Positions 42,514-61,806 of a stretch of DNA of 64,000 nucleotides are shown here, piece after piece. The DNA comes from a virus. The notes under the pieces are model-generated. The model saw only the letters and a list, made by a program, of their open reading frames with translations. It made no database searches and had not been told where the DNA came from. Positions within the stretch are counted from its first letter, which is position 1. The number at the start of each line of letters is the position of its first letter. The translations under genes and the position numbers were made by a program. The stretch is from positions 1 to 64,000 of the IMG/VR virus record IMGVR_UViG_3300031992_000005. The stretch is one strand, 5' to 3'.

Positions 42514-42514
42514 C

Positions 42515-45779: not shown

Positions 45780-45832
45780 CAGGACCTCAAGCCCTTACAG
45801 GTGTATATAATTAATATTAAAAAGATTAGACT

Positions 45833-46423
45833 ATGAAATGGGAATGGTATGAAGTAACAACTGAAGTCTTAAAAGAAGCTTTGGAGTTTTATAGCAAGCC
45901 TGAAGAAGACTGGATCAAAGATGTAGTTATTGAAGTCCAAAATCCAGCTAGCTTAATAAATTCAAGAGTATATCTTACTGCAGTGCCACCAGATAAGATG
46001 GATAAAAAATTGGCAGAAGTAGCAAAAATGATTTCAGTTATTGTTGTTAACCCAGGAGAAAAGTTTGCCAGAGTTACATTAACGCCAATGAATCAATTTT
46101 TTGGTAGTAGTTGCTTAGAGAAACTTTTCGGAAATGTGTATAAGCCACATGAACGTAGCTATCTAAATTTTCTCAAACAGAAAAAGATAGAAGGTGAATC
46201 TTTTGAGAAATATCTCAATAGGATGTGGTATATATTCTGTAACGATGAACGAGTACGGGTCGGAATCGGAGAAGAGGATATTTATAACCCTAATGAGAAA
46301 TTCGTTAGAATTAGGCCTATATACTACGACACTTGGTTAGACTTGATGAAATTATATACAGAAACAGGAAACATTAAATACCTTATACCTGAACAAGATA
46401 TTAAAATTTTTAAAGTTAAATGA
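45833..46423 (+). CDS. hypothetical protein
   Basis: 196-aa ORF. Confidence 0.6.
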   Translation: MKWEWYEVTTEVLKEALEFYSKPEEDWIKDVVIEVQNPASLINSRVYLTAVPPDKMDKKLAEVAKMISVIVVNPGEKFARVTLTPMNQFFGSSCLEKLFGNVYKPHERSYLNFLKQKKIEGESFEKYLNRMWYIFCNDERVRVGIGEEDIYNPNEKFVRIRPIYYDTWLDLMKLYTETGNIKYLIPEQDIKIFKVK

Positions 46424-46887
46424 GTAAACATTTCAGAGGTATATTTTTAAATGTATACTTACTAGAAGCAGATATAGTCCGATATTTAGAGGGTAAAGGC
46501 TATAAAATTATTACATTAAATACCGCGATAAAGACTTTTTGCAACTTAAAGGATACCATTGATGTAAGACCTTTCTTAAGTTCTTCTACTAGGTATATGA
46601 AACTCTGTTATAAAACAGAAGAGGATTATCTTCACTTAAGAGATATGGTAGAACTACTCTTTAGTGGAGTAATAGGAGAGGTTAAAACGTGGTTAGATAT
46701 TAAAGAACCTAAACCAAATTTAACTATTAATATCAACTATATCAGTACTGGATTTCTATTTACTGAAGAAAATGGCAGTTTCTATGACCACGTTGCCCTT
46801 AAGGTAGGTAAAAAGTTATTGAAAGAAAATTTAAAAAAGATATTAACATATGAAAAAGGCGAAAACGGCAATAATATTTTTTCATAG
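46420..46887 (+). CDS. hypothetical protein
   Basis: 155-aa ORF with a 4-nt overlap onto the previous ORF. Confidence 0.55.
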   Translation: MSKHFRGIFLNVYLLEADIVRYLEGKGYKIITLNTAIKTFCNLKDTIDVRPFLSSSTRYMKLCYKTEEDYLHLRDMVELLFSGVIGEVKTWLDIKEPKPNLTININYISTGFLFTEENGSFYDHVALKVGKKLLKENLKKILTYEKGENGNNIFS

Positions 46888-47782
46888 ATCAGACTACGAT
46901 GGCCTATTTTCAGGCTTTATCGCAAAGTCTAAGTTACAAGAAGACGGATACCTAGTTACATCAATAGGCTGGACTTATGGAATGCCTATTCCAAAAGAAT
47001 TAAAACAACGGACATGGGATGTTGTAGTAGTAGTTGACTTGAGTTTTCCACCAGAAATAATGGATAGTATTGAAAACCTGGTTTGGATAGATCACCATGA
47101 TACTTCCATTAAAGATAGTAAACCTTTCAAATACTTCTTCTCTCCCGGAAAAAGAGTATTAGGTAAAGGTGCTTGTGAATTAGCTTGGGAATATTTCTAC
47201 CCAGAGATTGAAGTGCCATTATCTATACAATATCTGAGTGCATATGATGTACATGATATGAAAAGATTTGACTGGCAAGAAAAATCTCTACCACTACAGT
47301 ATGCATTGAAGGCGATGTACGGTAACTCTAAGGATCCGTTGTTTGAAGAATTTGTAAATCTAACCAACCCAGGTAATCTTAATAGGGTGGATGAGTTAAT
47401 AGAAACCGGAAAAATAGTTTTGCAATATGCAAGACGAATGGCTGAGATAGCTGTAAAGAATTACGGTTTCGTAGTAACTGTAAATGAAAAATATAGCGGA
47501 TTATGTATAATCACTACTGATTTCAAGGCGTCTTTGTATACTGAGCTAATGATTGATAAATATGATATCTTAGTTCTAGTTAACAGAAAAAGATCCTCAC
47601 CAGAAGATATATTTATAGTGGGCTTTTATTCTGAGGAAGGAAAACTTGACTTCTCTTTAGGTGATTATGCAAAAGAAATTGTTAAAGGAACTGGAAGAAA
47701 CGGAGGTGGTCATAAGTGTGCCTCTGGTTGTGAAATAGATAAGGAACAGTTCCTAAAACTAATTAGTAGTAAAAAAATATAA
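46850..47782 (+). CDS. DHH/DHHA1-family phosphoesterase (NrnA/RecJ-like)
   Basis: 310 aa. FHRSDYDG, VVVDLS, WIDHHDT (DHH motif) and GGGHKCASG (DHHA1 GGGH motif). Confidence 0.75.
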   Translation: MKKAKTAIIFFHRSDYDGLFSGFIAKSKLQEDGYLVTSIGWTYGMPIPKELKQRTWDVVVVVDLSFPPEIMDSIENLVWIDHHDTSIKDSKPFKYFFSPGKRVLGKGACELAWEYFYPEIEVPLSIQYLSAYDVHDMKRFDWQEKSLPLQYALKAMYGNSKDPLFEEFVNLTNPGNLNRVDELIETGKIVLQYARRMAEIAVKNYGFVVTVNEKYSGLCIITTDFKASLYTELMIDKYDILVLVNRKRSSPEDIFIVGFYSEEGKLDFSLGDYAKEIVKGTGRNGGGHKCASGCEIDKEQFLKLISSKKI

Positions 47783-47816
47783 AAAAATTCAGTGGGATTC
47801 GTCCCACTGTTTTTAT
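47783..47816. terminator. bidirectional terminator between convergent genes
   Basis: CAGTGGGA/TCCCACTG 8-bp stem flanked by A7 and a T-run. Confidence 0.8.
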
Positions 47817-47817
47817 T

Positions 47818-48237
47818 TTAAAATAATTTTTCTAAAAATCTAACAAGTTCACTTAATAATTCTTCGTGTGGTTTAATACAAATCCACTCCCAAATCATAA
47901 AGTAATAGATAACACACGTTAATATGCAATCTATTACAATAAAAATATACTTATCAGGTCTTTTTATAATAGATAAAACTAGGATCAGTAAGAATCCAAA
48001 CTTAAAACTACTAAAAAATAATCCCCCAATAAGAAAAACCCAGTATATAATATCAATAAGAATAAAACAAATATACCTAGACTTTAATTTTTCTTCATCG
48101 TGGTCTAGGTTTTCTTCTTTCAATATTACATCTCTTCCTTTATCAAGCCCCTCCTTGAAAAAAGTAATGTTTGATAATTTCCATAATTCCCATACGAAAA
48201 ATATCAAAGCTCCAAAAATAATAATCGAATCAAACAT
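47818..48237 (-). CDS. membrane protein
   Basis: 139 aa with about four hydrophobic helices. Confidence 0.55.
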   Translation of the reverse strand: MFDSIIIFGALIFFVWELWKLSNITFFKEGLDKGRDVILKEENLDHDEEKLKSRYICFILIDIIYWVFLIGGLFFSSFKFGFLLILVLSIIKRPDKYIFIVIDCILTCVIYYFMIWEWICIKPHEELLSELVRFLEKLF

Positions 48238-48257
48238 AGCATAAATAGTATATTATA

Positions 48258-48278
48258 TCTAATATAAGGCTTTTAAAC
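48258..48278 (-). promoter_or_regulatory. phage promoter-like motif
   Basis: Plus strand reads TCTAATATAAGGCTTTTAAAC. A divergent plus-strand variant, AAACTCTTACTTATG, is adjacent. Confidence 0.45.
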
Positions 48279-48331
48279 TCTTACTTATGTAAAAACTTTA
48301 TTTAGTATTAATTTTTAAATAAAAAAAAAGC

Positions 48332-49501
48332 ATGGAACAAGAAAAAGAAAAATTAGTTGGTTTATCAAAAACGAGTTGGCATTATAAGCTCGTTAGATTT
48401 TGCTGGAATATTGAGCCAGACAAAGTCTTTAAGAACCTATGTCCTTATTTCTGGCTATCTATTGCTTCAATCCTAGTAGTTATTCCGATAGGAATCTATC
48501 GAGGAATTATCAGCCTAGCCAAGGAGTGGGGTAAGTATATCTCAAAAACCCTTGACAAGGTTAACTTATCTAGGGTTGATTCAATTCTCGATTCGTTCGA
48601 TAAGATGGATTTGTTCTTCTTTTTGATGAACGAAGCACCTTCTAAGCTTGGAATAGAATTTGATGAGCCTGATTATGACGATTATCGTTTCTTAAGAGAT
48701 TCCGGATCAAGGGAATATAAAGCCCTAGATCGAAAAGTAGAAATAATCAGAGATGCTTCAGAAGATTACTATGTAACCTATAGCGACTTGCTTGAGAAGA
48801 TTAAGACTAGAAGAAATCTCAGCAATGAGGATATTTACTCTTATAAGAAGATCTTTCATAATAGAGTGGAAGAGATTAGGAAAAGAGTAGAGAAAGAAAG
48901 AGCTGAGCGGGCTGAGGAAATGATGAAAAAAGATATCCGAGAGAAAAAGATGAAGGAAAGACTGTATGTCATTGGAAACTATACAAAGAGCTTCTTGACC
49001 GGTGTTTTCATCGCCATTCTGATAGCTTTTGGATTCATAATACAACACCCATTTATTCAGTTGGTTCTGACAGCCGACGGAGAAGATGTGCTTGGATTCC
49101 TAAAATTCGTGCTCATTGTTTGTGCAGCCTTAGCTTTTCTTCTGTGTTGCGTATTTCTTGGAATTCAGTCAGCAGAACTCCTGAATTCTTATAAGGACGT
49201 AGGTAAAGACGCATTGAAAGGATTAAATAAGTTTGAAAAAGTATCTGTTATTATATTACTTGGTCTGGCAAAAACAGCCGTAGTAATTAAGGACGTACTT
49301 GTATTCTTGTACAAATATCTCATATACTATCCATTGTATAAATTCCTATACTGTACAATTCTAGGAGGAATTGGAAGAGGATTTGTAGAAGGAATTCAGG
49401 AGTTTGGAGGTATATTTTCAGACTACTTCAATGCCTCTTATTCAGATTATTGCCCAAGTATTGATTGGGACAACGAAGAAAAAGAAAAAGAAAATAATTA
49501 A
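48332..49501 (+). CDS. membrane protein
   Basis: 389 aa with several TM helices and a charged K/E-rich middle segment. Confidence 0.6.
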   Translation: MEQEKEKLVGLSKTSWHYKLVRFCWNIEPDKVFKNLCPYFWLSIASILVVIPIGIYRGIISLAKEWGKYISKTLDKVNLSRVDSILDSFDKMDLFFFLMNEAPSKLGIEFDEPDYDDYRFLRDSGSREYKALDRKVEIIRDASEDYYVTYSDLLEKIKTRRNLSNEDIYSYKKIFHNRVEEIRKRVEKERAERAEEMMKKDIREKKMKERLYVIGNYTKSFLTGVFIAILIAFGFIIQHPFIQLVLTADGEDVLGFLKFVLIVCAALAFLLCCVFLGIQSAELLNSYKDVGKDALKGLNKFEKVSVIILLGLAKTAVVIKDVLVFLYKYLIYYPLYKFLYCTILGGIGRGFVEGIQEFGGIFSDYFNASYSDYCPSIDWDNEEKEKENN

Positions 49502-49516
49502 AATTAGAAAAATATT

Positions 49517-50053
49517 ATGTACTACTTTATTATATTAGCAATTATTGTATTAATTTCAATAACTTGCTTGAAAAACAGCGTAGCAAAAAAAGGTATCTTG
49601 GTTGTAGTATTTATTGCTGCAATTATAGGAGGCATACTTGGTGGTATTATCGAAGGTGCTATTATTCGAACCTCTGGAATTAAGGCAGAGAATATCACAA
49701 CTACCTCAAAATTTGAACCTTATGTAACAGACTCAGTTATGACAGAGGATTGTATCATTCGTGAGGGCAAGGGTGGAATATTTGAAGACAAGTATTCACT
49801 GAGTGATATTAGAGGTGGAGAAGGTCTAGAACATAAGATTATTATTGTGAATGATTCTCTTCAGCCCGGTATCTTGACAGTTAAGAAAACTCTAGCTCAT
49901 AGAGTACTTCCGGGGATACCAAGTTTCAAAATGACACTTGAGAGTAAAAATTATGTAGTATTACCAAAGAAGCAGTATGAAGTATTCAAGACTATTGAAA
50001 ATCATGCTAGAGAAAGAGAAGATTCATTGGCGAAGGCTAAAGAATCTGTTTAA
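49517..50053 (+). CDS. membrane-anchored hypothetical protein
   Basis: 178 aa with two N-terminal hydrophobic helices. Confidence 0.55.
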   Translation: MYYFIILAIIVLISITCLKNSVAKKGILVVVFIAAIIGGILGGIIEGAIIRTSGIKAENITTTSKFEPYVTDSVMTEDCIIREGKGGIFEDKYSLSDIRGGEGLEHKIIIVNDSLQPGILTVKKTLAHRVLPGIPSFKMTLESKNYVVLPKKQYEVFKTIENHAREREDSLAKAKESV

Positions 50054-50228
50054 AGCAATTGACTCTATCTCTGGAAAATTGGTATCTTGGCCGATAATAG
50101 TAGTGCTAGTATCTATTGCGCACTATTGTTTTGCGGCAATGCATTTCCTATTTGAAACTTATCTTTATCTCTTCAATAGAGATCAGTTTGAATTAAATAT
50201 GGTATCCTTAAGCAAGAGGTTAGCATGA
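49977..50228 (+). CDS. small membrane protein (start uncertain)
   Basis: 83-aa ORF with one TM. Its stop overlaps the next ATG (ATGA). It overlaps the previous ORF by 77 nt. Confidence 0.4.
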   Translation: MKYSRLLKIMLEKEKIHWRRLKNLFKAIDSISGKLVSWPIIVVLVSIAHYCFAAMHFLFETYLYLFNRDQFELNMVSLSKRLA

Positions 50229-50380
50229 AAAAGACTAGTTTCTGGCATAACCTTCTTAGGGGAATGATATACCTCCTGGTATGCAAAGGCATATTTTGGT
50301 TAATGCCTTTTCAAGATGCCATAGTACTTATCTCTGCGATAGTAATATGTAATTTGGATCTCATAAATGAGAAAAAATAA
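50225..50380 (+). CDS. 51-aa small membrane protein
   Basis: MKKTSFWHNLLRGMIYLLVCKGIFWLMPFQDAIVLISAIVICNLDLINEKK. Followed by terminator 50389-50420. Confidence 0.4.
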   Translation: MKKTSFWHNLLRGMIYLLVCKGIFWLMPFQDAIVLISAIVICNLDLINEKK

Positions 50381-50388
50381 AAAAGAAA

Positions 50389-50420
50389 GAATAGAGCCCG
50401 AAAGGACTCTATTTTTTTTT
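50389..50420 (+). terminator. intrinsic terminator
   Basis: ATAGAG/CTCTAT stem plus T9. Confidence 0.65.
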
Positions 50421-50480
50421 GTCTCCAAAGATTAAACGTTTATTTTAAAAGCTTTAGTTCTAATTCACCGTTTCCGCCTG

Positions 50481-50512
50481 AGGTTCTATACATACATATG
50501 TATAGATTACCT
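50481..50512. other. strong isolated hairpin
   Basis: AGGTTCTATACAT, loop ACAT, then ATGTATAGA-TT-ACCT: 13 bp with a 2-nt bulge. It lies in the 170-nt spacer between two terminators that face each other. Confidence 0.7.
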
Positions 50513-50590
50513 GGCATCTTCAGTACGAGCTTCACCCGTATACGATTTATCAGACCTAAAGTGTTAAAATTGTTTCTATAAAGGTTACAA

Positions 50591-50640
50591 ATAAGAAAAG
50601 AGAACCTTAACTGAAATTGTTGTGTGTGTTAAAGTTCTCT
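50591..50640 (-). terminator. intrinsic terminator of the 58-aa ORF
   Basis: AGAACCTTAA/TTAAAGTTCT stem (1 mismatch) followed by a T-rich run on the minus strand. Confidence 0.55.
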
Positions 50641-50648
50641 TCTCTCCA

Positions 50649-50825
50649 TTAGAGTTTGTCTGTCACCGTTTTCAGGTGAAACAAACAGTACGTTGTCATC
50701 AAGAACCAGATACCAATTGAAATCTGGTTCTCACAGAATGGCCGGTAATCGGCCAAAAGAAGTGCTAATCCAAAAAACATTCCTATGAAGGAAATAATTC
50801 GGATTATTTTAACTAATTTTTTCAT
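50649..50825 (-). CDS. 58-aa small membrane protein
   Basis: MKKLVKIIRIISFIGMFFGLALLLADYRPFCENQISIGIWFLMTTYCLFHLKTVTDKL. Promoter-like motif upstream (about 50877-50890), terminator at 50591-50640. Confidence 0.45.
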   Translation of the reverse strand: MKKLVKIIRIISFIGMFFGLALLLADYRPFCENQISIGIWFLMTTYCLFHLKTVTDKL

Positions 50826-51055
50826 GTCGCTAATTTTTTTTTGTTATAATTTCTATAAATAGGTTACCTATATCTTCTCTATATAGGATTTATGATCTCC
50901 GATTATAGTTCACTGTGAGTATTTTTCTATTTATACTCTGACCTCTTCGGTCTTTAGATTCCTATAATAGTCAGGCTGTAACCTAACCACCGGATATCAC
51001 GCTCTATTACTTCAATGATTTGGATTTACAGATCCTCCTCATCTTTTCATAGTTC

Positions 51056-51071
51056 CTCAGGACGTCCTGAG
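51056..51071. repeat. 16-nt perfect palindrome CTCAGGACGTCCTGAG
   Basis: Read directly from the sequence. It contains an AatII-like GACGTC core. Confidence 0.9.
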
Positions 51072-51178
51072 TACTGCGCTTTGATCGAGACCCTGCCAAA
51101 GATTCTTCATCTTCAGGTTTCTCGTCCCGTAGATAATCTCTTCGATTATCCAAAATTTTGTATAAAAATTATTTTAAA

Positions 51179-51221
51179 ATACCCCAAACGTACCTCAATA
51201 TTTGTGGGTACTGCGGGGTAT
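51179..51221. other. two-tier hairpin
   Basis: ATACCCC/GGGGTAT (7 bp) enclosing GTACC/GGTAC (5 bp). Confidence 0.7.
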
Positions 51222-51497
51222 GTGTCTATAAATAATAGTGTTATTGTCTTCTTTAACACTTTAACCTTTTATACGCTCTGAGCCAATACATCAATCGGGT
51301 ATAACAACTTCCCTTTTTCCCAATCTCCTGGTAAGATTGATGCGCTATGCTATTTTCTGTTCGCTCAGACGAACCCAAGTACTATCTATCTTGGCTGTCC
51401 TTATATAGGTCCCCCATAGCCACCTTCAGTATGCCTATATAAGTTAGTAGTATACGTTTCAACTACATAGTATCGGTATATATTTATTCATATATAA

Positions 51498-51511
51498 CCT
51501 TATATATAAGG
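51498..51511. promoter_or_regulatory. palindromic (potentially bidirectional) promoter motif CCTTATATATAAGG
   Basis: The motif reads the same on both strands. Two further plus-oriented variants lie at 51399-51409 and 51431-51443. Confidence 0.5.
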
Positions 51512-51574
51512 CTTTCACCAGATAACAAAAAGGAAAAAAATTTCGGTCTATTTCCTTAAGAATGTACTAAAATT

Positions 51575-51697
51575 ATGAATATTATGAGAAAATTAGTGAA
51601 TTTTAACATGGGAACGCTATTATTAATAAATTTTTTAGTAATGGCAGTTATTACATTAGTGAGACTTGGTTATCGGATCGCTGAAAATGGATATTAA
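51575..51697 (+). CDS. 40-aa micro-ORF, one TM
   Basis: MNIMRKLVNFNMGTLLLINFLVMAVITLVRLGYRIAENGY. It lies downstream of the palindromic promoter at 51498-51511 and overlaps the next ATG. Confidence 0.35.
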   Translation: MNIMRKLVNFNMGTLLLINFLVMAVITLVRLGYRIAENGY

Positions 51698-52271
51698 AAT
51701 TTGGGATGGAGGCTATTTTTATAGTTTTGTGGGGAAATACTATCCCCAACTAGACTATAAAACTGAGTTTGAACAATCTACAGATCCTATTGGTACGGAT
51801 CCAAATCTCCCTATTCTTGATTTCAAAGAACGTATCCTATTAGTTGCGCCTGATGTTAAAACGGGTGACATAATGAAGTTTAGTTCTACTAGAATTCTAC
51901 TTAGTAAATGTAGGAAGAAGTATAATGTGGTCGAGCAGGTGCATATTGTACATGAGTATTTTTACCCTTTTAATAAGATAATAGCTAAACTTCCACTCTA
52001 CATGAGGTATTGCTATATCTTCGGAGATAAGAATCAAGTCCTGGAAGAATATAAAGATATTCTAAAAAGAAGCTACCAAAAAACCTTATCACAACAAGTA
52101 GTGAAAACTACGGTACTAGAAGCGATTAAAAGTACCATCGAAGAGTATTCTAAAGTGGGTACGAGAATTGTTATAATAAGTGCAGAAAGAGATCAAGAGC
52201 ATTCTTTTAAGAGTGTTCTAGTGAATTCTTTGAGAGAGAATGGAATAATTGTGGAAAAATTATGGGATTAG
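51687..52271 (+). CDS. hypothetical protein
   Basis: The ORF track starts at a TTG (51666). I prefer the ATG at 51687 (MDIKIWDGG...). Confidence 0.6.
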   Translation: MDIKIWDGGYFYSFVGKYYPQLDYKTEFEQSTDPIGTDPNLPILDFKERILLVAPDVKTGDIMKFSSTRILLSKCRKKYNVVEQVHIVHEYFYPFNKIIAKLPLYMRYCYIFGDKNQVLEEYKDILKRSYQKTLSQQVVKTTVLEAIKSTIEEYSKVGTRIVIISAERDQEHSFKSVLVNSLRENGIIVEKLWD

Positions 52272-52756
52272 TATTAGCATGTAGCAGGTTTAGCTTTCCT
52301 AAGTATGTTGAAGAATTTGGCGGACCTAATTCAAAGGATTCCGCTTACATATCTATATCAGCAACCAAGGAATGCGCAGAATATTATCTACAATATAATC
52401 TAAGTAGAGATTGGGAAAGTGAATGTTCTCATTATCTCTTAGATTCTGATAATGTTTGTAATGTAAATTTCGATGACCTAGAGAAAGATATTGTTTTTAC
52501 GGATAACATAGTATTCAGAACAATATCAGAAGAACAGGCGAAGAAAATTGTTCTTTTTATTGAGAAGAACTTAGGAAAAAATTTCCTAATTCATTGTAGA
52601 GCTGGCATGAGTAGAAGTCAAGGAGTAGTTAGGTTTATCTTAGATACCTACCCCGATTATAAGGAACACCCTGATAATCATTGCATTACTCCTAACATGG
52701 AAGTTGTAAGAAAGCTTAAGAATGAATATTGCAAAATAAAAAAAGAAAGGGATTAA
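52262..52756 (+). CDS. CX5R protein-tyrosine / dual-specificity phosphatase-like protein
   Basis: 164 aa. The LIHCRAGMSRSQG signature (HCxxGxxRS) lies in the expected C-terminal third. Confidence 0.7.
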   Translation: MGLVLACSRFSFPKYVEEFGGPNSKDSAYISISATKECAEYYLQYNLSRDWESECSHYLLDSDNVCNVNFDDLEKDIVFTDNIVFRTISEEQAKKIVLFIEKNLGKNFLIHCRAGMSRSQGVVRFILDTYPDYKEHPDNHCITPNMEVVRKLKNEYCKIKKERD

Positions 52757-52781: not shown

Positions 52782-52991
52782 TTACGTATCTCTTGTAAGT
52801 ATTGTCCAGAATATGGCTACTATTAATACGATCATTACTATAGGCCATAGCCATAGCATGAAAAACTTCAAGATACGCTCTAAGAGTTTATTCTTGAAAG
52901 TAATTCTCCTAGTAAGATTATATTCCTGTAGGGTCATAAATCCTACTATCAAGTAGCAAATTACTATAAATGTAATTTCAATGTAACCCAT
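52782..52991 (-). CDS. small membrane protein
   Basis: 69 aa with two hydrophobic helices. Confidence 0.5.
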   Translation of the reverse strand: MGYIEITFIVICYLIVGFMTLQEYNLTRRITFKNKLLERILKFFMLWLWPIVMIVLIVAIFWTILTRDT

Positions 52992-54471
52992 AAAACGCCT
53001 TTCTAATTTTTATTAATATATCATCTACTACAGATTTGTCAATTTCATCAGGGAGAGATGAATTAGCCATAGCCTGTTTCATCTCCTCGTCTTTACTTTC
53101 TAAGAATTTCATAAGATCATCATATACGACATTACCTTCTCGAATATTCATCAAGAATTCTCTATCGATATTTCTTCGATCTAATTTCATGCCTTCTCCT
53201 TTGGCGATCTCAATTCCCATTGTTAAGAGTCTAGCACTATGACAAGCATTTTTCAGGTCATAATGTCCTTTCTTTGCGAGATTAAATCTCTCTTCATTAT
53301 GATGCTTATTCCAGTCATTGTATTCATGATACTGCTTACAATAGTTCGAGTAGCCATCTTTATTATAAGATACATCAATGAGAGGCAACTCACCTTTCGG
53401 AATGGAGCTTAGTCTTACTTGATTACTAGTATCAGCCAAGTTAACTAATCCCTTATAGCCAAAAGGCTTTTTATATCTCTCCCAAGTGAGATGAATGAAA
53501 TCTCCTTCATCATATGCCCCGAATAATGTAAAAGCATTTACGAATAGTAATTTCCAGAATGGATCAATATCTTGGAAATTCTCCGTGAACGTATTGGAGA
53601 ATTTTGGCAAATGTTCTGCAAATTCTTCTTCTGTTGTAATACCAATATCCTTAAGATGTGCTCCCCAGTCATAGTACATGCTATACATGCAGTTCATTCC
53701 GTCCAGGTTAACTAATCCACAGAATTCCTGCTTCAATTTATTGAAACCTAGGTAATCGACAACCTTCTTAACATCACCGTCAACTGCATATAAGATATAC
53801 TCTAGACAGCTCTTAAGTGGACCTGTCATAGGTTGAGTAATTTTCTTCTTTAGATCCCTAGCTCTTTCAATCTGAGTCTTAGCATATCCTAAGAATGAAT
53901 GGAAGCATTTCTTAGTGATAAACCTATCTCTTTCCTGTAAGATAATATCCATTAATGGATGTTTATAAAGAATTTTATCTTCAGGAACAAATAAAGACTC
54001 TAAGACATTTGGATTTGATTTAAGCAAGAGGAGAAGAAATTTTTTGAGACTAAACCAAGACTCATTATTATCCCGAGTATTAATATCCTCTGGAAAATCC
54101 AGTCCTGTTCCAAAACAGATTTCCATAGGTTCAATGAATACTCCGCCATGATCTTCATCGCTTTCTGGCCTATCTAAGCCATATAAACGACTACCACGTA
54201 TATATTCATATAACAAGAACCCATTTTTTCTAATGTAATCAAATTCAAAATGATCTAATGAATAGTCATCCTGAATAGCTACATTAGTAGTACAGAATTC
54301 ACTATTAATTTCTATTGTATAAACTTTACCAACTTCTACTATGAAAGTTTTTTCAAGTAAGTCGATAACAGTTCCTACCATTCTCCAACACCATCTATGC
54401 TGAAGAATTATTAAGGTTGACCCTTTTTCAATAGTCTTTCCATAAAAGTCTACAAATTTCATTTTTTCCAT
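52978..54471 (-). CDS. Pol-beta-fold nucleotidyltransferase, RlaP-like (PF10127-type)
   Basis: 497 aa. GSRLYGLDRPESDEDHGGVF matches the GS..YG....SD.D..GV nucleotidyltransferase motif. It has an approx. 85-aa N-terminal extension. Confidence 0.7.
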   Translation of the reverse strand: MEKMKFVDFYGKTIEKGSTLIILQHRWCWRMVGTVIDLLEKTFIVEVGKVYTIEINSEFCTTNVAIQDDYSLDHFEFDYIRKNGFLLYEYIRGSRLYGLDRPESDEDHGGVFIEPMEICFGTGLDFPEDINTRDNNESWFSLKKFLLLLLKSNPNVLESLFVPEDKILYKHPLMDIILQERDRFITKKCFHSFLGYAKTQIERARDLKKKITQPMTGPLKSCLEYILYAVDGDVKKVVDYLGFNKLKQEFCGLVNLDGMNCMYSMYYDWGAHLKDIGITTEEEFAEHLPKFSNTFTENFQDIDPFWKLLFVNAFTLFGAYDEGDFIHLTWERYKKPFGYKGLVNLADTSNQVRLSSIPKGELPLIDVSYNKDGYSNYCKQYHEYNDWNKHHNEERFNLAKKGHYDLKNACHSARLLTMGIEIAKGEGMKLDRRNIDREFLMNIREGNVVYDDLMKFLESKDEEMKQAMANSSLPDEIDKSVVDDILIKIRKAFYGLH

Positions 54472-54698: not shown

Positions 54699-55964
54699 TT
54701 AGGAAAATATCTTATTTTCTAACTGGATGCTTGATCCGATATTGTCTCCATTCCTACTCTGAATGAAAGTCAATAGGCCGAGCTTCTTTAATCCAAGCAA
54801 AACTACTGCTGCAAAATCCTTTGGATATACACTTTGAATTACTGAAGCAAGTCCCCCAGACAGTTCTGCATCTAAAACTCTCAGAGACAAATTGGCTGTC
54901 TTTTCTGCAAATAACAGTATTGCATTCATTATACCTAACCAAGCCACAATCTTATTGAAGTTAAAGGTTGGACTCAAGAATCTAAATTCTACAGTCTTAT
55001 TAATCCTATAACACAATAAGTTGACTAAGTTCATCCAGTAATATCTGGTAGGTATTCTCCATTTTGCCTCACGAGTAATATCACGTGGATGTGGTTGTGT
55101 GAAACTACCCATGTAATTCTTACCCACCAGGTATGCATATAGTGCATTGAAATTTGGCAGAGAATCTATACTAGGCAATTTCTTACAGTAATCCTTGCCA
55201 GTAGCCTTATACTCTGAACTTCTAAATGCCAGAGGTGGAAGAATAGTCGATAATTCGCATTCTAGCTTCTTACAAACTCGATAGAGATTATAGACTACTT
55301 CTGGTACCATAGGGTAACCCCCCAGGTGAACATGCAGAGAACATTCCTTATTAAAGATGGTATATTCATTCAGGGTATCTACTTGTTGACGAAGGAGATT
55401 AATTCCCTCATTTCCAGAAAGAACCACGGTTGAATATTCCAATCCACCGATAGATCCATCTCTTAGTGGAATAAGACCGTCTCTGAAACAGAGGTGTTCT
55501 GGAATATATCCACCACTTGTCTCAAACTCAAGACCAAAGGTATACTTGAGATATTTAGACAGTTCATAGAAGTCTATCTTTAATAGCTTCTGCTTATCCT
55601 TGAAAATGTCAAAGCTTTCTACAGCCTCATATTTTCTGACGAATCTCTGATAAGGATATCTACCATTTCCATAAGTGAATCTCTCACGAAGATAACCTTC
55701 CTGCGAAAAATCTACAAATTTACTGAAATAAACACCTTGTAAGTTACTGTAGAAAATCTTATCCTTCACCAGCTCATAGCAAGCATTTACTGTTCTGAGA
55801 GAATGTGGGTCTTTGTCGTAATCAATCAACATTAATTGAATGATAGATGCTCTATCCGCTACATATCCGTATATTATGTGGCCATCTTTTAAGAGATCAA
55901 CCACCACTGACATACATCTTCCTTTATTCTCTAGATTTCCAGTATAACTATCTACTACTTTCAT
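54699..55964 (-). CDS. amidoligase (Amidoligase_2 / GCS2-like COOH-NH2 ligase)
   Basis: 421 aa. Contains FGLEFETSGG, GGLEYSTVV and CSLHVHLGG. Confidence 0.7.
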   Translation of the reverse strand: MKVVDSYTGNLENKGRCMSVVVDLLKDGHIIYGYVADRASIIQLMLIDYDKDPHSLRTVNACYELVKDKIFYSNLQGVYFSKFVDFSQEGYLRERFTYGNGRYPYQRFVRKYEAVESFDIFKDKQKLLKIDFYELSKYLKYTFGLEFETSGGYIPEHLCFRDGLIPLRDGSIGGLEYSTVVLSGNEGINLLRQQVDTLNEYTIFNKECSLHVHLGGYPMVPEVVYNLYRVCKKLECELSTILPPLAFRSSEYKATGKDYCKKLPSIDSLPNFNALYAYLVGKNYMGSFTQPHPRDITREAKWRIPTRYYWMNLVNLLCYRINKTVEFRFLSPTFNFNKIVAWLGIMNAILLFAEKTANLSLRVLDAELSGGLASVIQSVYPKDFAAVVLLGLKKLGLLTFIQSRNGDNIGSSIQLENKIFS

Positions 55965-55970
55965 GTTACT

Positions 55971-57392
55971 TTAACCTTTAAATAAGCGAGCAACAAGCGT
56001 TGCTATCTCTGATTTCGTAAATTGTTGATTTGCTTCAACGGCTTTAAATGGTTTACTATACTGTTGACCATAACAAGTCGTTACCAAAGAGCCGTCCCTA
56101 TAGGACTTGGAAAATCCTTCACCCAATCTCTGAATGTGCCCTGTAAAAGGTACCGTCTTAGATCCTTCAACAACTTGGTGAACAATATTCTTGTCATCTA
56201 TGTAGAAAGGCTCTAAGCTGAGATATCTAATCAAGTAGCAATTCTTGATTAAGAAATCCTTGACAGAGGCACAGGTCTTTTTTCTTTGCACGGAAACTTC
56301 TTCCTCGTGTGTTATATATTTCCAGCACCTCTTATTTAAGAGTGGAATTCCGTTATAAAACCAAACTGAATGGGTTGTACAGTTTTTATCTTTTCCAAGA
56401 TCTGCCTCAGGAATTACTCTACCATAAATTGTGAGGTTATACTTACCATTCATAGGTACACCCCTCAATTGATAGGTGAAGTTCTCCATTGCTCTTATGT
56501 AATTAGACTGATGATATACACCATCACTATCATAATAGCCATTATAGACATGAGTATTTCCAAAGGCAGTGGTACCAACACCATTAAAACCAACGGTAGG
56601 TACTCCTCCCCCACTATAATATGTGGCTTTATATGGTTTCGTTTGGATAGCTTTATCTCTACTATAAACTCCAAGATCCACTAATCCATCCTCAGCTGTA
56701 TAAGACATTAAGTGATTTCCGTCAATGGTATATACCTTTTGTCCTCTTCTAAGGGCATCGAGATATTTACCTATTGATGAGAATACAATCTCATCTTCCG
56801 AATCATCAAAAGTCATATACAAAGGTCTTTCTTCCTCAGGCTTTACCGAATATTCTGTTCTCTTAGATATTCCCTTGAAGAACAGACACTTAGGGCTATC
56901 TACTCGATAGTCAATGATTACAAATACACTACCGCCATTATATTCTGACAGTACGTCATATCCCTTGTAATAGAAGATCCTGGCCATGACTTGTGAATCA
57001 GTCATGTCATCTATCTTAATGTTTGGGATATACTTTTGAGCAAGTTCTTTGTAATTATAGATTGTACCGTTATGAAGAACTACAAATCTGATTCTTCCAG
57101 ACTTATCCTTCAAAACAACAGGCTGAGCAGTTCTTTCATTGATGGCACCAACAGATGCTTTTCTACAATGTCCAACTGCTATCGTAGACTCTTTTTTATT
57201 TTTCAGAATCTTACTTTCAGTGAAGAAGTCTTGAAACAGCTTATTATCTCTAACGCCGTATTCATATTCTCCATCGATGAAGATTCCACACGAATCTCCG
57301 CCTCGGGAATCATTGTTGACCCCGAGTACAGAGAATGTAGAATAGTCGAATGCCCGTTTTTTCCTATTTATTATTCCGAAAAGTCCGCACAT
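55971..57392 (-). CDS. class-II (Ntn) glutamine amidotransferase domain protein with unknown C-terminal domain
   Basis: 473 aa. MCGLFGII (Cys2 nucleophile), VGHCRKASVG and VLHNGTIYN. The C-terminal approx. 230 aa is unassigned. Confidence 0.8.
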   Translation of the reverse strand: MCGLFGIINRKKRAFDYSTFSVLGVNNDSRGGDSCGIFIDGEYEYGVRDNKLFQDFFTESKILKNKKESTIAVGHCRKASVGAINERTAQPVVLKDKSGRIRFVVLHNGTIYNYKELAQKYIPNIKIDDMTDSQVMARIFYYKGYDVLSEYNGGSVFVIIDYRVDSPKCLFFKGISKRTEYSVKPEEERPLYMTFDDSEDEIVFSSIGKYLDALRRGQKVYTIDGNHLMSYTAEDGLVDLGVYSRDKAIQTKPYKATYYSGGGVPTVGFNGVGTTAFGNTHVYNGYYDSDGVYHQSNYIRAMENFTYQLRGVPMNGKYNLTIYGRVIPEADLGKDKNCTTHSVWFYNGIPLLNKRCWKYITHEEEVSVQRKKTCASVKDFLIKNCYLIRYLSLEPFYIDDKNIVHQVVEGSKTVPFTGHIQRLGEGFSKSYRDGSLVTTCYGQQYSKPFKAVEANQQFTKSEIATLVARLFKG

Positions 57393-58198
57393 GTTATTTC
57401 TTCTTCTAAGATATAGAACTTTCTAATTAATTCTTTTGCTTTTTCTGCATCACTATTATTAATAGCGACGATAGTATCCTCATACAAAGGAATATTCGAG
57501 CAACTATTATAAGCATTGATTGCTCTCATAACCTGATGGAACACAAACTTAATTGTTTTACTGTTCTTCATCATAGCGCTGGATAATACTCGATACTCAA
57601 CGCCATAATCGGTTAATCTGAAAGCTCCTGCCTTACCATACAGCGATCTTCTCCGAGTATCGGTATCAATAATCACTGATGGTAGTCCTACGAATGCATC
57701 CAGGTACTTTACAAGACACACTGAATCCTCGATATTAGGATTTTCATATCCAATATGCACATGGAATCCTGCTGATCTTAAGCAGGTATTCGTTCCCTTT
57801 GGCTTTGGATTTTCATTCTCAGTGTATGCATTGTAGTCAGGAGAGCACCCAAATAGTTTTGCCAATGGGTGTCTCAGCTGCGTCTTTGGTACCATTTCAC
57901 TTGCAGAACATTTGATTTCCAAATTTGGATCAATGTTCTTGATGTAAGTTGTAATATACTTTTTCATGTAATTGATGTTGTTAAGGAAAGCCAGTTCGCT
58001 AGTAACTGGTGGGATATTGAATTCGGCTAAGATATTATCTATCTCCAATCCAAATCCTTTTGGCATGTCCTCACCAACCCAAGGATTTCCTTTTTCTCCT
58101 GGAATAATACCGATAGCTGATACTACTGGCTTATCGGTTTTTGCACCGTTTACCAGGAACAACTCGGGATCTGCCCCAATTGTAACTTGACTAATCAT
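57371..58198 (-). CDS. phiEco32-type COOH-NH2 ligase (GCS-superfamily amidoligase)
   Basis: 275 aa. Contains TIGADPELFL, GLEIDNILAEFNIPP, AGFHVHIGY and GVEYRVLS. Confidence 0.65.
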   Translation of the reverse strand: MISQVTIGADPELFLVNGAKTDKPVVSAIGIIPGEKGNPWVGEDMPKGFGLEIDNILAEFNIPPVTSELAFLNNINYMKKYITTYIKNIDPNLEIKCSASEMVPKTQLRHPLAKLFGCSPDYNAYTENENPKPKGTNTCLRSAGFHVHIGYENPNIEDSVCLVKYLDAFVGLPSVIIDTDTRRRSLYGKAGAFRLTDYGVEYRVLSSAMMKNSKTIKFVFHQVMRAINAYNSCSNIPLYEDTIVAINNSDAEKAKELIRKFYILEEEITCADFSE

Positions 58199-58850
58199 TG
58201 TTCTTTTCCTCCTTTAATTTGATTTGTACAAGCTGACTTTCGATCAATTCGTTCAACATCTTCACCACTGGCTCAGTATCTCTCATAATCTCTGGATGAC
58301 CTTGAATTGCAAGGCATCTTGGATTTCCAGGCTTGGTATAAAGCACTACTTCAGGCTCCACCTTGATTGAATGAACATCAATCTTATCGCCTGCATAATA
58401 ACTGCTAATAGCATTTGCCCAATAGAGGATCTTGTATTCGTTACCAGGTAGATCAAATGGATACTGCATCTGATGATGAGTCGATGTGATCTGATAAGCA
58501 ACACTGCCATTTGTGATCTCATGTGTTCCGTATCTTGCATGACGATCACAATCCTGAATCAACTTACCTCCGTTCATAACGCAGAGGAACTGAGATCCAC
58601 GGCAAATACCAACTGCCAACTGACTTGGTTTGATCGAATCGAACACCTTCTTTTCTGCAGAGTCTCTACCCGCACTGTAATGCGTAGTCGAATGTGCCTG
58701 ACAGCCATAGAGAGATGGATTTACGTCTTCTCCACCAGTGAAAAGCACTACATCTGCATTCTTGATGTCCTTCACCAATTCATGATTGTTAATGAAATTC
58801 GCATAATAGGTTGAACCACCTACTACAAAAACTTTAATCTTCTTTTCCAT
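58191..58850 (-). CDS. class-I glutamine amidotransferase / peptidase C26 (gamma-glutamyl hydrolase-like)
   Basis: 219 aa. FTGGEDVNPSLYG, GICRGSQFL (nucleophile elbow), HHQM and IQGHPE. Confidence 0.75.
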   Translation of the reverse strand: MEKKIKVFVVGGSTYYANFINNHELVKDIKNADVVLFTGGEDVNPSLYGCQAHSTTHYSAGRDSAEKKVFDSIKPSQLAVGICRGSQFLCVMNGGKLIQDCDRHARYGTHEITNGSVAYQITSTHHQMQYPFDLPGNEYKILYWANAISSYYAGDKIDVHSIKVEPEVVLYTKPGNPRCLAIQGHPEIMRDTEPVVKMLNELIESQLVQIKLKEEKNND

Positions 58851-58855: not shown

Positions 58856-59695
58856 TTACTTTGATTTAAGAAATTTTTTTGAAATTTTATCTAATATTTC
58901 TCTGTAAACAGAGAATCGTACTTCTCTTTCTTCGCGATTTTCCAGGAATTCTTGTAAATCTCCAGGAAACGCGACAGATGATTTTTTTATTTCACTCAAC
59001 ATTACAAAATCACTTTTTGATAAAGCATGATTTGATGTATATGTTGTAAAAACATTGTTTAATCTACAATTGTCGTATTCGTTTATAAGGTATTCAAGGC
59101 TTGTCTTAATACACCTATTGTTACGATAAATTGGACTATTCGATGAGGGATCAATAAGACTATGTAATTCAAATTCACAAGTACGTCTCGATCCAACATC
59201 AGACACTGTTCTATTCAACAGTGATATCATATTGATTAAACTGACAAACGAATACTTGGGATTATTCTTATGAGCTTTTATAAACTCATGAGCCTCAAAT
59301 AGTAAGAGGTTGTATGGGAATTCATACAGTAGCCTAGTCCAGGCTAGTATGAACTTGTGGTATAATTTTCTACCACCTACATGAAATGCAATTCTAACAT
59401 ATTTATGATTTTGCCATGTATAATCCCCTACCAGTACTTTTGACTCTTTACCTATCAGCTTGAGCCCAAGTTTTACATAGTTCCTAATGAAAGTCTTATC
59501 AAATGGGGCAAAATTGCTATAATGATTTTTCTTTATAGATTCATTTGTCGTATCGACAAGAATTCTATATGTAGAATCAAGCTCACTCTCCGGACTATTA
59601 AAGATGGTTCCGAAGCATGCATGACTATGAAAATTCTTATCTTCTTCTCCTATACAATAAATTGTACGATAACTAATGCATCTCCAATAACTCAT
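58856..59695 (-). CDS. hypothetical protein, tandem paralogue A
   Basis: 279 aa. It shares HK[YF].L...R..YEFP[FY]N..L and NPK motifs with 59702-60664. Confidence 0.6.
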   Translation of the reverse strand: MSYWRCISYRTIYCIGEEDKNFHSHACFGTIFNSPESELDSTYRILVDTTNESIKKNHYSNFAPFDKTFIRNYVKLGLKLIGKESKVLVGDYTWQNHKYVRIAFHVGGRKLYHKFILAWTRLLYEFPYNLLLFEAHEFIKAHKNNPKYSFVSLINMISLLNRTVSDVGSRRTCEFELHSLIDPSSNSPIYRNNRCIKTSLEYLINEYDNCRLNNVFTTYTSNHALSKSDFVMLSEIKKSSVAFPGDLQEFLENREEREVRFSVYREILDKISKKFLKSK

Positions 59696-59701: not shown

Positions 59702-60664
59702 TTATTTTCTAAAATGTTGTCTAACTATATCGTAAATTTCTAGGTATCGATTATTTTTTGCCTCAATTATTTGAGGCTTTAACCAATTTTCTAGGTTACC
59801 TTCTATATCTGTCCCTAAAAGACTTTCTTTTACTAACCTTGTCGAATTATTTGAGAAATATTTCCTAGCAGTTTCCTCTGTAGAAATTGATTTCAAAAAG
59901 TCCTTTGATTTTTGATAACTAACCCAAGACTTTATTTCATCTGTTCCCGTCAGATAATCTAGCCTGTTAGATCTTCCTCCAAAATCAAAATTATCCAATA
60001 AGTTACGAATTTCTTTGTTACTGAACATAAAGCTTCTTGGACCAAAGTTTATATCATGTCCAGAAACAGGAGTAGCAAAAGCTAGTTGATATATTGAATA
60101 TAAGGTCTGCAAAGGTATTCTCCATAACTTAGGATTATTTCGTCTAATCCGATATACATCCATTAATATCATATTAAATGGAAATTCATAAGCTCTTCTT
60201 AAATAGAAGAGAGCATACTTGTGAGCTATAGGTCTACTGTTTATCGTAAAAGATACCTCAAACGCTGGATAACGCTGTATAAAAATATCTTCTATTCTAA
60301 TATCAGATATATCTACTATCTTCACTAACGTCTTGATATACTGTAATAACTGTCTCTTATTAAAGAAACACTTATTATTTATTGAAGAACTGAGTAATTC
60401 TTCTTTATGAGCATCAAGAAATACAAGACTATATCTCAATTCAACTCTCTGATAGCTAGTTATCTTATTTTCTGCTATCTTAGCATCGAAAGCTGAGAAT
60501 ATGGTATTGAAACAAGCACTGTTAGCTACATACCCAACTCCTGTGCTATGAAGGAGCTTTCCTTTATACTTATATAAAGTCTTGAAATTCAAAAACCTAA
60601 ATTCGTTCATATTGAATTTAAATAAAAAAGTAGAGTACCCCCACAGAAGGTACTCTACATACAA
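59702..60664 (-). CDS. hypothetical protein, tandem paralogue B
   Basis: 320 aa, paralogous to 58856-59695. Confidence 0.6.
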   Translation of the reverse strand: MYVEYLLWGYSTFLFKFNMNEFRFLNFKTLYKYKGKLLHSTGVGYVANSACFNTIFSAFDAKIAENKITSYQRVELRYSLVFLDAHKEELLSSSINNKCFFNKRQLLQYIKTLVKIVDISDIRIEDIFIQRYPAFEVSFTINSRPIAHKYALFYLRRAYEFPFNMILMDVYRIRRNNPKLWRIPLQTLYSIYQLAFATPVSGHDINFGPRSFMFSNKEIRNLLDNFDFGGRSNRLDYLTGTDEIKSWVSYQKSKDFLKSISTEETARKYFSNNSTRLVKESLLGTDIEGNLENWLKPQIIEAKNNRYLEIYDIVRQHFRK

Positions 60665-60678: not shown

Positions 60679-61806
60679 TTAGTCTTCGTCGTCTTCAGCT
60701 TCCTTTTCCTTTTCTGGCTGCTTTGCCTCTTCTGGAGCTGGCTGTGGTTGAGGCTGAGCCTGACCACCGAACAGACCACCAAAGAGTCCGCCACCGTTAC
60801 CATTTCCACCGAAAGCGCCGAACGCCTGCATCATCAACAAATCCTTGAAGCTAGACTCGTCACCGTCCTTGTCACCCAAGAAGGCCAACATTGCCAAGTT
60901 ATTTGGAGCCACCTGACCATTGTTCTGGCTGAGGAGCATGAGTGGAAGGAGCTTTGAGAACTTTCCTTCACCTTCACCTTCATCGTCGTTGAGCGCCAAA
61001 AGCATCATAGGGTTGATACCACCACCGAAATTACCTGCGAGCGGAGAAACTACTACACGAACGTAGCTCTCGTTGAACAGGAAGTCCTTAATGGTGTGGA
61101 TAGTCTTGCCCGAACCGGTATAGCTGATCGCCTTGATCTTACCGAATTCGCCGATCTTAATGATCTTAGCAAAACTTCTGTCAAGAGCGATAACGTCACC
61201 CACCTGCAGCTGAGCCTTAGGCTTGCTGATTGTGTAAACTGGAACTGGAAGCGTAAACTCTTTTGGATAAGAGATAAGCTCGTTGTTCTGATTGATTGTG
61301 ACGTAACCTTCGTCGGTTTCTACACAGATGTTACCATCCTGTGCTACTCGTACACCCTTCACCTCTCTTGGCATCAATGTGTCCTTGAGGCGAGCCATGC
61401 AACCTGAAATAGAAGAATTTTTCTTCATGCTGTTTTCCTCCTTGCTTGAATTGTTTGTTTTATTGAATACTGGGATTGCTTCCTTACACCAGGTCTCGTA
61501 ACGAACTCTGTTAGCTACACTGGTGATATTTACTTTCTTAAGACCATAAGATCTCTGGAGTTCGTCAATGTACTCCTGATCTTCCGCAGAGAGCTCATCA
61601 ATAGACTTATCGAAAGTCTTAATGATGTAGAGCGAGTTACCTTTCTTCGTAATGATATTGTCGCCGGCATTTACACCTGTAAGGTGAGCATTGAGTTCTA
61701 CGTTTGCAATGTAAAACTTGCTGTTCTGCTGAGCGAACTTGATTACATCCTTGATGTTCTTAGGAACGAATCCTAGATTAGATGTATAGACAACAAATTT
61801 GTTCAT
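60679..61806 (-). CDS. hypothetical protein with G/F-rich and acidic C-terminal tail
   Basis: 375 aa. The C-terminus reads GGNGNGGGLFGGLFGGQAQPQPQPAPEEAKQPEKEKEAEDDED. The 3' two-thirds of the gene is visibly G+C-rich. Confidence 0.65.
   Translation of the reverse strand: MNKFVVYTSNLGFVPKNIKDVIKFAQQNSKFYIANVELNAHLTGVNAGDNIITKKGNSLYIIKTFDKSIDELSAEDQEYIDELQRSYGLKKVNITSVANRVRYETWCKEAIPVFNKTNNSSKEENSMKKNSSISGCMARLKDTLMPREVKGVRVAQDGNICVETDEGYVTINQNNELISYPKEFTLPVPVYTISKPKAQLQVGDVIALDRSFAKIIKIGEFGKIKAISYTGSGKTIHTIKDFLFNESYVRVVVSPLAGNFGGGINPMMLLALNDDEGEGEGKFSKLLPLMLLSQNNGQVAPNNLAMLAFLGDKDGDESSFKDLLMMQAFGAFGGNGNGGGLFGGLFGGQAQPQPQPAPEEAKQPEKEKEAEDDED

Follow-up and report, generated by a model that had tools for sequence, protein, structure and literature searches.

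What does a phage make with a string of genes in which two ligases and two amidohydrolases sit side by side? The question is raised by IMG/VR virus record IMGVR_UViG_3300031992_000005, of which positions 1 to 64,000 were analysed (this whole stretch, AT-rich at ~33% GC, is called the window below). A first-pass annotation, made from the letters alone, had pointed to four co-oriented genes at 58850..54699 on the minus strand, a class-I glutamine amidotransferase-like gene (GAT1), a COOH-NH2 ligase gene (LIG1), a class-II glutamine amidotransferase gene (GAT2), and an Amidoligase_2-type ligase gene (LIG2), and had read them as one biochemical system. That reading was essentially right; the four genes do occur together, and the unit is larger than supposed, comprising at least six genes, X1-X2-GAT1-LIG1-GAT2-LIG2, and not four. 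We regard it as an evenly balanced proposition that this tightly coupled string is a phage-restricted operon with the four enzyme genes as its enzymatic core. By sequence comparison it is a variant of the already known phiEco32/PaP3/LUZ24-type phage amidoligase module.

In the open reading frame (ORF) listing, the four core genes share one orientation and are preceded on the same strand by the two X genes, which lie upstream of GAT1. The members of the unit are:

59702..60610, minus strand: X1, a paralogue of X2, 302 aa from the ATG at 60610, isoelectric point (pI) 9.6
58856..59695, minus strand: X2, a member of the unannotated family X, 279 aa, pI 9.1
58191..58850, minus strand: GAT1, class-I glutamine amidotransferase/peptidase C26-like protein, 219 aa
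57371..58198, minus strand: LIG1, phiEco32-type COOH-NH2 ligase, a GS/GCL-fold carboxylate-amine ligase, 275 aa
55971..57392, minus strand: GAT2, whole protein, Ntn class-II amidotransferase (GAT-II) plus orphan C-terminal domain, 473 aa
56643..57392, minus strand: GAT2 N-terminal domain, Ntn-type class-II glutaminase, residues 1-250
55971..56537, minus strand: GAT2 C-terminal orphan domain, residues 286-473, after the disordered linker 259-285
54699..55964, minus strand: LIG2, Amidoligase_2-type carboxylate-amine ligase, 421 aa

The junctions are tight throughout. X1 and X2 are separated by 6 nt and X2 and GAT1 by 5 nt; the end of GAT1 overlaps the start of LIG1 by 8 nt (58191-58198), the end of LIG1 overlaps the start of GAT2 by 22 nt (57371-57392), and 6 nt (55965-55970) lie between GAT2 and LIG2. 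The overlaps and the gap reported in the first pass are exact, and the overlap of stop with start codons would fit translational coupling. Downstream, a gap of 227 nt separates LIG2 from an RlaP-type nucleotidyltransferase gene. The upstream limit is marked by two further features:

60630..60658, minus strand: terminator-like hairpin, 13-bp stem (6 GC pairs) and 3-nt loop, then TTTTTTATTT
60679..61806, minus strand: P375, conserved upstream neighbour, 375 aa

The hairpin sits between P375 and X1, a position that suggests transcription of P375 in a unit of its own, or in an attenuated one, and a start of the six-gene string at X1. A longer X1 ORF can be drawn from a TTG at 60664; because this extension runs through the hairpin, the ATG at 60610 is taken as the true start, and the corresponding 302-aa form was chosen by gene callers on four independent contigs. 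A scan for sigma-70 promoters found 34 sites where 36.3 were expected, and a megablast search of the region against phage sequences gave no match.

All four family assignments of the first pass lie above the Pfam gathering thresholds and agree with PHROGs, that of GAT2 being also upheld by structure, and every motif it had quoted is present in the translations. In conservation alignments of 74-81 unique relatives per enzyme, all four are shown to retain their catalytic residues, and all four look active. GAT1 matches Peptidase_C26 (PF07722, E 3.9e-15, 56.6 bits vs a cut-off of 20.5) and phrog_7218 (E 9.6e-33), with Lin1909 (3fij, E 8e-7) as its nearest solved chain; its NCBIfam matches, to gamma-glutamyl hydrolase and to GMP synthase subunits, are weak and sub-threshold. 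It carries the motifs GICRGSQFL, HHQM, and GHPE, and both the triad C83/H185/E187 and H125-H126-Q127 are >=95% conserved among 74 unique relatives. LIG1 matches COOH-NH2_lig (PF14395, E 5.4e-12, 45.9 bits vs a cut-off of 25) and phrog_3815 (E 1.9e-65) and contains IGADPELF, FHVHIGY, and EYR. This above-threshold hidden Markov model (HMM) match is accompanied by the acidic/His/Arg active-site set of GS/GCL-fold ligases, with D10, E12, E59, R141, H146, H148, E201, and R203 invariant or >=95% conserved in the alignment of relatives. No relative of LIG1 was found in the PDB by sequence or by profile searches.

LIG2 matches Amidoligase_2 (PF12224, E 2.8e-6, 27.8 bits vs a cut-off of 22; phrog_2443, E 5.3e-14), with the motifs GLEFETSGG and SLHVHLGG. 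Across 79 relatives the ExE/HxH/ExR residues (E146/E148, H211/H213, E326/R328) are >=95% conserved, as are D169, E176, K253, K257, and R307. Sequence and profile searches of the PDB were empty for LIG2, and a profile-level comparison of LIG1 with LIG2 gave no signal of a relationship.

GAT2 opens with MCGLFG, so that the catalytic Cys directly follows the Met, and carries HNGTIYN. Its Pfam matches are GATase_6 (E 1.3e-13, 51.5 bits vs a cut-off of 27) and GATase_7 (E 6.3e-10). In a full-length AlphaFold2 model (pLDDT 88.6), the first ~250 residues match the glutaminase domains of GlmS, PurF, and AsnB (Foldseek, E ~1e-10) and the rest is unmatched. The N-terminal Cys and the Ntn alpha-beta-beta-alpha fold place it among the class-II amidotransferases, and C2, R77, N108, G109, and D132 are >=95% conserved in 76 relatives. 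GAT2 thus shares with GlmS, PurF, and AsnB an N-terminal Ntn glutaminase with Cys2, Arg, Asn-Gly, and Asp, by sequence and by fold; unlike them, it has no SIS, PRTase, or PP-loop synthase domain in cis that Pfam, PDB fold, or NCBIfam searches could find, and its NCBIfam scores stay at ~50 bits vs equivalog cut-offs of 350-420 (e.g., 50.6 vs 381).

The first pass had left ~230 aa at the C-terminus of GAT2 unassigned. The lack of a family holds, and the size does not: a disordered, Gly/Tyr-rich linker (residues 259-285) leads into a domain of 188 aa (286-473). Residues 283-473 modelled alone give a confident fold (pLDDT 91.3, pTM 0.85), which has no Pfam match and no fold match in the PDB (best E=1.0, probability 0.06). 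Its BFVD matches are limited to the same protein in the crAss-like Steigviridae phage cr108_1 (6e-7, TMq 0.63) and of Cellulophaga phage phi14:2 (3.4e-5). The domain is basic, and only Gly, Phe, and Ser residues reach >=95% conservation, with no conserved polar residue among them. Because there is neither a PDB match nor a conserved polar residue, we infer that it is probably a non-catalytic, module-specific docking or adaptor domain. As the C-terminus, judged from the model, is no synthase, the label "glucosamine-6-phosphate aminotransferase" found in phage annotations is unjustified, and the widespread annotation of this GAT-II as "glucosamine-6-phosphate synthase" is wrong.

The two X genes complete the unit. 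X1 and X2 are paralogous (BLASTP 2e-13), and an equivalent paralogue pair occupies the same position in cr108_1 (4e-11). A word-indexed homologue search returned near-identical proteins only, and an exhaustive profile search recovered 275 representative clusters at E<=1e-3. A typical member is ~250 aa long, with invariant C27, R121, and E125 in an ACF...R..YE.PYN pattern. Since Pfam and PHROGs gave no consistent match and the PDB none, X appears, from these searches, to be a new, previously unannotated protein family. Profile comparisons of X with the GAT2 C-terminal domain, LIG1, LIG2, and P375 showed no signal of relationship.

How far does this arrangement extend beyond the window? The module is present in at least 426 IMG/VR stretches. 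For a closer view, 80 IMG/VR loci were fetched with LIG1 as the only bait, and their six-frame ORFs were scanned with HMMs built from seed sequences. GAT1 was found in 79 of the 80, the GAT2 N-terminal domain in 78, LIG2 in 77, and X in 75; lower counts were obtained for the GAT2 C-terminal domain (51), an ATP-grasp gene (49), P375 (29), and a gamma-glutamyl cyclotransferase gene, GGCT (18). The co-occurrence expected in the first pass is therefore borne out, at high frequency and in fixed order in these LIG1-anchored loci, the commonest arrangement being [GGCT]-[ATP-grasp or P375]-X(1-2)-GAT1-LIG1-GAT2-LIG2. X stands directly upstream of GAT1 in nearly all of their architectures.

Over all lineages, the invariant core is LIG1, LIG2, and GAT2, with LIG2 and GAT2 always neighbours. 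LIG2 adjoins GAT2 in all architectures encountered, and either can come first; the order is reversed in PaP3, Bas86, Rembedalsseter, and the loci L084/L085. The podophage versions, for which PaP3, UFV-P2, Rembedalsseter, and the phiEco32-like Bas86 were covered, run as two ~300-aa proteins, LIG1, a ~190-aa protein, LIG2, GAT2, ATP-grasp, and GGCT. Three unrelated uncharacterised proteins thus fill the X/X and GAT-I positions: no relationship of the ~190-aa protein to GAT-I was detectable, nor any homology of X to the pair of ~300-aa proteins that precede the ligase in PaP3, Rembedalsseter, and Bas86, with which it has only a CFG tripeptide near the N-terminus in common.

The ligase subfamily looks phage-restricted. 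Relatives of LIG1 occur in 314 of 50,697 deposited phage genomes (tblastn), and the deposited carriers span many Gram-negative host genera. Among bacterial and archaeal representative genomes of 185,579 species, searched with one restrictive peptide pattern, there were 7 relatives only, all on contigs from metagenome bins (4 titled as metagenome-assembled genomes, some contigs 100-160 kb long), and these contigs may be mis-binned phage DNA.

Insertions interrupt module genes in several relatives. Three genes, GAT1, LIG1, and LIG2, are split in two in L008 (5244-10842), where the ORF between the LIG1 halves has a faint LAGLIDADG match; L014 (8361-13805) has GAT1 and LIG2 each split in two; and the COOH-NH2 ligase of Bas86 (L002) is annotated as joined around an HNH endonuclease (6478-7786). 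In Leptolyngbya phage Lbo-JY46 (L003, 1748-6582), the module directly follows PncB (nicotinate phosphoribosyltransferase), PRPP synthetase, and a SNO-type GATase, a context that is a possible hint of pyridine-nucleotide chemistry.

Which known systems come closest? The phage amidoligase neighbourhood of the phiEco32/PaP3 type was reportedly described by Iyer, Abhiman, Burroughs and Aravind in 2009, and the first-pass statement that phage neighbourhoods combine these families agrees with it. The phiEco32/PaP3/LUZ24-type module and the window operon both encode COOH-NH2_lig, Amidoligase_2, and an Ntn GAT-II on one strand of a phage genome, the GAT-II adjoining Amidoligase_2, and both look phage-restricted. 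The window differs in having a detectable C26/GAT-I protein, a pair of X paralogues, and a different GAT-II C-terminal domain, and in lacking the accompanying ATP-grasp and AIG2/GGCT genes, neither of which was detected by seed HMMs within the 64-kb window at E<=1e-3.

The nearest deposited relatives of the module proteins are those of the Steigviridae phages cr108_1 and phi14:2, at identities of 48% for LIG1, 35% for GAT2, and 41% for LIG2. The gene order of cr108_1, X-X-GAT1-LIG1-GAT2-LIG2, is that of the window, and the fold of the GAT-II C-terminal domain matches. The surroundings differ, the Steigviridae having ATP-grasp upstream (with GGCT in phi14:2) and a uracil-DNA glycosylase gene (UDG) directly downstream, whereas the window has P375 upstream and the RlaP-type gene downstream; their genomes are also ~100 kb, compared with a phage of ~354 kb here.

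Beyond phages, MurT/GatD and GatCAB work by a like logic, in which a stand-alone glutaminase serves a separate ATP-using, carboxylate-activating subunit and a carboxamide results. The parallel would be one of mode of action: their activating subunits have other folds (Mur-ligase, GatB), and they showed no relation to LIG1 or LIG2 in sequence or structure. PuuA/PuuD (PauA/PauD), like the window operon, pair an ATP-dependent ligase of the GS fold with a gamma-glutamyl hydrolase of the peptidase C26 kind; unlike them, the window operon has a second ligase and a GAT-II and no oxidising steps, and similarity at the level of PuuA/PuuD was not found in its proteins by NCBIfam.

What, then, might the module do? 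The mechanism that we favour, to which we would give an even chance, is that of two ligase/amidohydrolase pairs that would make glutamine-derived amide bonds on an acceptor. LIG2 would use ATP to activate a carboxylate of the acceptor as an acyl-phosphate, the N-terminal Cys of GAT2 would hydrolyse glutamine, and the ammonia would be passed to LIG2, where the carboxylate becomes a carboxamide. The orphan C-terminal domain would dock GAT2 onto LIG2. That GAT2 feeds LIG2 is proposed because of their invariant adjacency and because, in a directed-evolution study of a Bruynoghevirus, missense single-nucleotide polymorphisms arose in both the amidoligase and the GAT-II genes, in both evolved lines (PMC11450229). 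LIG1 and GAT1 would form the second pair, which may perform either a second glutamine-dependent amidation or a gamma-glutamyl ligation followed by gamma-glutamyl cleavage, and the basic X proteins could be the specificity, carrier, or scaffold parts of this variant. Such chemistry would yield, in the cytoplasm of the infected cell, an amide-linked compound or tag derived from Glu/Gln, and as its acceptor we think a small metabolite, peptide, or envelope precursor likelier than phage DNA. The genes that relatives add, a RimK/GshB-like ATP-grasp and gamma-glutamyl cyclotransferase, support this mechanism; with the module they make up the enzyme set of gamma-glutamyl and peptide chemistry.

A number of observations weigh against such a scheme and should be kept in mind. 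The pairing of ligases with amidohydrolases is deduced from gene order only, and the role given to X is pure inference. The adjacency of GAT1 and LIG1 is broken in at least 6 of the 80 loci, and GAT1 is not universal, since it is undetectable in the Pseudomonas and Escherichia coli podophage versions. GAT1 also scores far better as a peptidase C26 of the gamma-glutamyl hydrolase type (56.6 bits) than as a canonical GATase (17.4 bits), for which reason the GAT1-LIG1 pair may be no amidotransferase at all.

A wider claim is that the six genes, with X and the orphan GAT-II domain, constitute a complete, previously unrecognised pathway that would furnish a macromolecule or signalling metabolite (e.g., a host protein, tRNA, envelope precursor, or defence-related small molecule) with a new amide modification derived from glutamine, X being a new enzyme or carrier fold. 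We put this forward tentatively, as something possible and rather short of probable. As the first pass had supposed, no experimentally determined substrate or product of the module was found in the full-text literature, and a later paper describes its function as still to be explored (PMC10580990).

The first alternative is close to a suggestion of the first pass, that a Glu/Gln-derived tag is added, amidated, and trimmed, and this remains one of the two live mechanistic readings. In a Puu/Pau-like form, LIG1 or LIG2 would couple glutamate, through its gamma-carboxylate, to an amine (e.g., a polyamine or amino compound); after processing of the intermediate, GAT1 (with GGCT in relatives) would remove the gamma-glutamyl group, and GAT2 would supply ammonia for one amidation. 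GS-fold ligases include gamma-glutamyl-polyamine synthetases. The best matches of GAT1 are peptidase C26, gamma-glutamyl-CDP-amidate hydrolase (weak, 3.1e-5), and Lin1909, and GGCT is encoded not only in the 18 loci but also in PaP3, phi14:2, Bas86, and Lbo-JY46. Against this, every specific NCBIfam score is far under its cut-off, the operon has no oxidase, aminotransferase, or other processing enzyme, and GGCT is absent from the window. In this specific form we consider the scheme doubtful.

Could the acceptor lie in the cell envelope? Here the two pairs would amidate carboxylates of peptidoglycan precursors, as MurT/GatD does on D-iGlu and AsnB/LtsA on mDAP, and the effect would be altered lysis timing or the exclusion of superinfecting phages. 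A cell-wall or superinfection-exclusion role is a suggestion that has been credited to Iyer et al. 2009 (PMC10580990). The number of ligase and glutamine-amidohydrolase pairs, two, would correspond to the two amidable carboxylates of the stem peptide, and the hosts spread across many Gram-negative genera. This is an unlikely explanation, all the same: none of the proteins has a Mur-ligase or Asn-synthetase fold or a feature that targets it to the membrane or envelope, the module lies among early or replication genes and not among lysis genes, and the literature yielded no experimental muropeptide data.

Hypermodification of DNA or nucleotides, also among the targets proposed in the first pass, has lost ground. 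The ligases would append an amino-acid-type substituent to a base of phage DNA or to a nucleotide precursor, or amidate such a substituent. The module does lie inside the replication blocks of podophages and crAss-like phages, and pI values of 9.1-9.6 mark both X proteins and the GAT2 C-terminal domain as basic. The gene right after LIG2 is UDG in 20 crAss-like members of the 80 loci (within L034-L076, 19 of ATP-grasp type plus L064) and again in cr108_1 and phi14:2 (L001 11753-12391, L011 12367-13077), with a 10-nt overlap in phi14:2; in the P375-type huge-phage loci UDG is never found directly after LIG2. Amidoligase and glutaminotransferase genes have also been found to adjoin genes for thymidine hypermodification (Lee et al. 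2021; PMC8989533). In the window, however, the module is not beside replication genes, and none of the 5-HMUDK (the 5-hmU DNA kinase), aGPT-Pplase, and pyrimidine hydroxymethylase genes that mark thymidine hypermodification was recognised nearby; no such enzyme is among the Pfam matches listed for 60 window ORFs, where the nine families left unlisted all have E above 6.5e-5. Pseudomonas phage Rembedalsseter, which carries the module, was examined by nanopore sequencing of native vs amplified DNA and showed nicks only and no base modification (PMC11780129). Because the window gave no match to the marker enzymes and Rembedalsseter shows nicks only, bulk DNA hypermodification is unlikely; because of the replication-block context, the UDG genes, and the gene neighbours reported by Lee et al., the idea keeps some weight, and we would leave it a slim chance.

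Protein tagging is a further candidate, in which a GS-fold ligase, in the manner of Pup/PafA/Dop or RimK, would put a Glu/Gln-derived group on a host or phage protein, with X or P375 as target or carrier. The Pup ligase PafA does belong to the GS-fold ligases, as does the deamidase Dop; the ATP-grasp of relatives is annotated RimK-like, X has its invariant Cys, Arg, and Glu, and the tail of P375 is disordered. The expected conserved C-terminal motif is absent from both X and P375, though, X is missing from the podophage versions, and the literature searches turned up no proteomic adduct, all of which makes tagging decidedly improbable. Finally, the view of these genes as generic auxiliary metabolic genes that boost the nitrogen or glutamine metabolism of the host, a nitrogen-metabolism role having been proposed for phage ZRK32 from growth data only (PMC10945688), is hardly credible, since both ligase families are, by the one-pattern search of species genomes, essentially phage-specific, no host homologues are duplicated, and the fixed multi-gene order and orphan domain point to a dedicated pathway.

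The flanks of the operon require caution when its membership is recorded. The N-terminal part of P375 is globular and is accompanied by a low-complexity region rich in Met, Gly, and Asn and by an acidic, disordered tail that is variable; the protein has no match in Pfam, PHROGs, NCBIfam, or PADLOC. It occurs in 29 of the 80 loci and ATP-grasp occurs at the same position in 49, never both together; the 2 loci with neither include L082, which starts 826 nt upstream of LIG1. All P375 loci fall within one clade and are the window's closest relatives, and the mutual exclusion may be a lineage effect; P375 is an uncertain member of the module. That it is a divergent ATP-grasp was considered and rejected (hhalign probability 3%, no Pfam match). 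The downstream RlaP-type nucleotidyltransferase (52978..54471, minus strand; PF10127 4.8e-21, phrog_388 7.6e-50) was likewise rejected as a member, because it is missing from the otherwise identical JGI contig L005 and from all 80 IMG/VR loci, which makes it a recent insertion or deletion. No PADLOC defence model matched any of the 8 proteins.

Converging on the end of the operon is a small protein (52262..52756, plus strand) with a weak, below-threshold match to dual-specificity phosphatases (PF00782 1.8e-4; phrog_5614 3.8e-15). A complete, bacterial-type glutamate--tRNA ligase (GluRS) of 526 aa is encoded 9 kb from the operon (44147..45727, minus strand; TIGR00464 1.9e-131, 439 bits vs a cut-off of 290), in DNA of 41% local GC vs ~33%. 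A link to tRNA-dependent amidation of the GatCAB kind was set aside, there being no aminoacyl-tRNA synthetase in the annotated podophage module regions and no tRNA gene in the window. In several ORFs within 1..52000 (e.g., 7528..10197 and 16120..17169), the Pfam scan of the 60 ORFs found IF-1 (1.2e-21), a ClpB-like double-AAA protein (889 aa), BspA-type LRR_5 (3.5e-74), DUF488, RNase H, a radical-SAM protein with CxxxCxxC, VWA CoxE-like plus AAA_5, and a STIV_B116-like protein. This is typical huge-phage cargo. A protein identical to GAT2 is also encoded on a contig of 353,905 bp, and LIG1 is found on contigs of the 0.2-1 Mb class; the window belongs to a huge phage of roughly 354 kb.

Beyond the first pass, the analysis contributes how far the unit really extends, its invariant GAT-II/Amidoligase_2 core, the X family, and the evidence against DNA modification. 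Predicted in 2009, the module is carried, among others, by Pseudomonas phages that have been investigated for therapy, by model phages of E. coli (BASEL Bas86-88), by crAss-like phages of human faeces, and by phages of ~350 kb; crAss-like and huge phages are among the relatives that have X, and Pseudomonas and E. coli phages among those in which it is not detectable. The compact, bounded six-gene unit and its invariant GAT-II/Amidoligase_2 pair define a minimal construct for expression and 15N-glutamine labelling. If the product is indeed a new modification or an anti-defence metabolite, the module would represent a broadly distributed piece of phage biochemistry.

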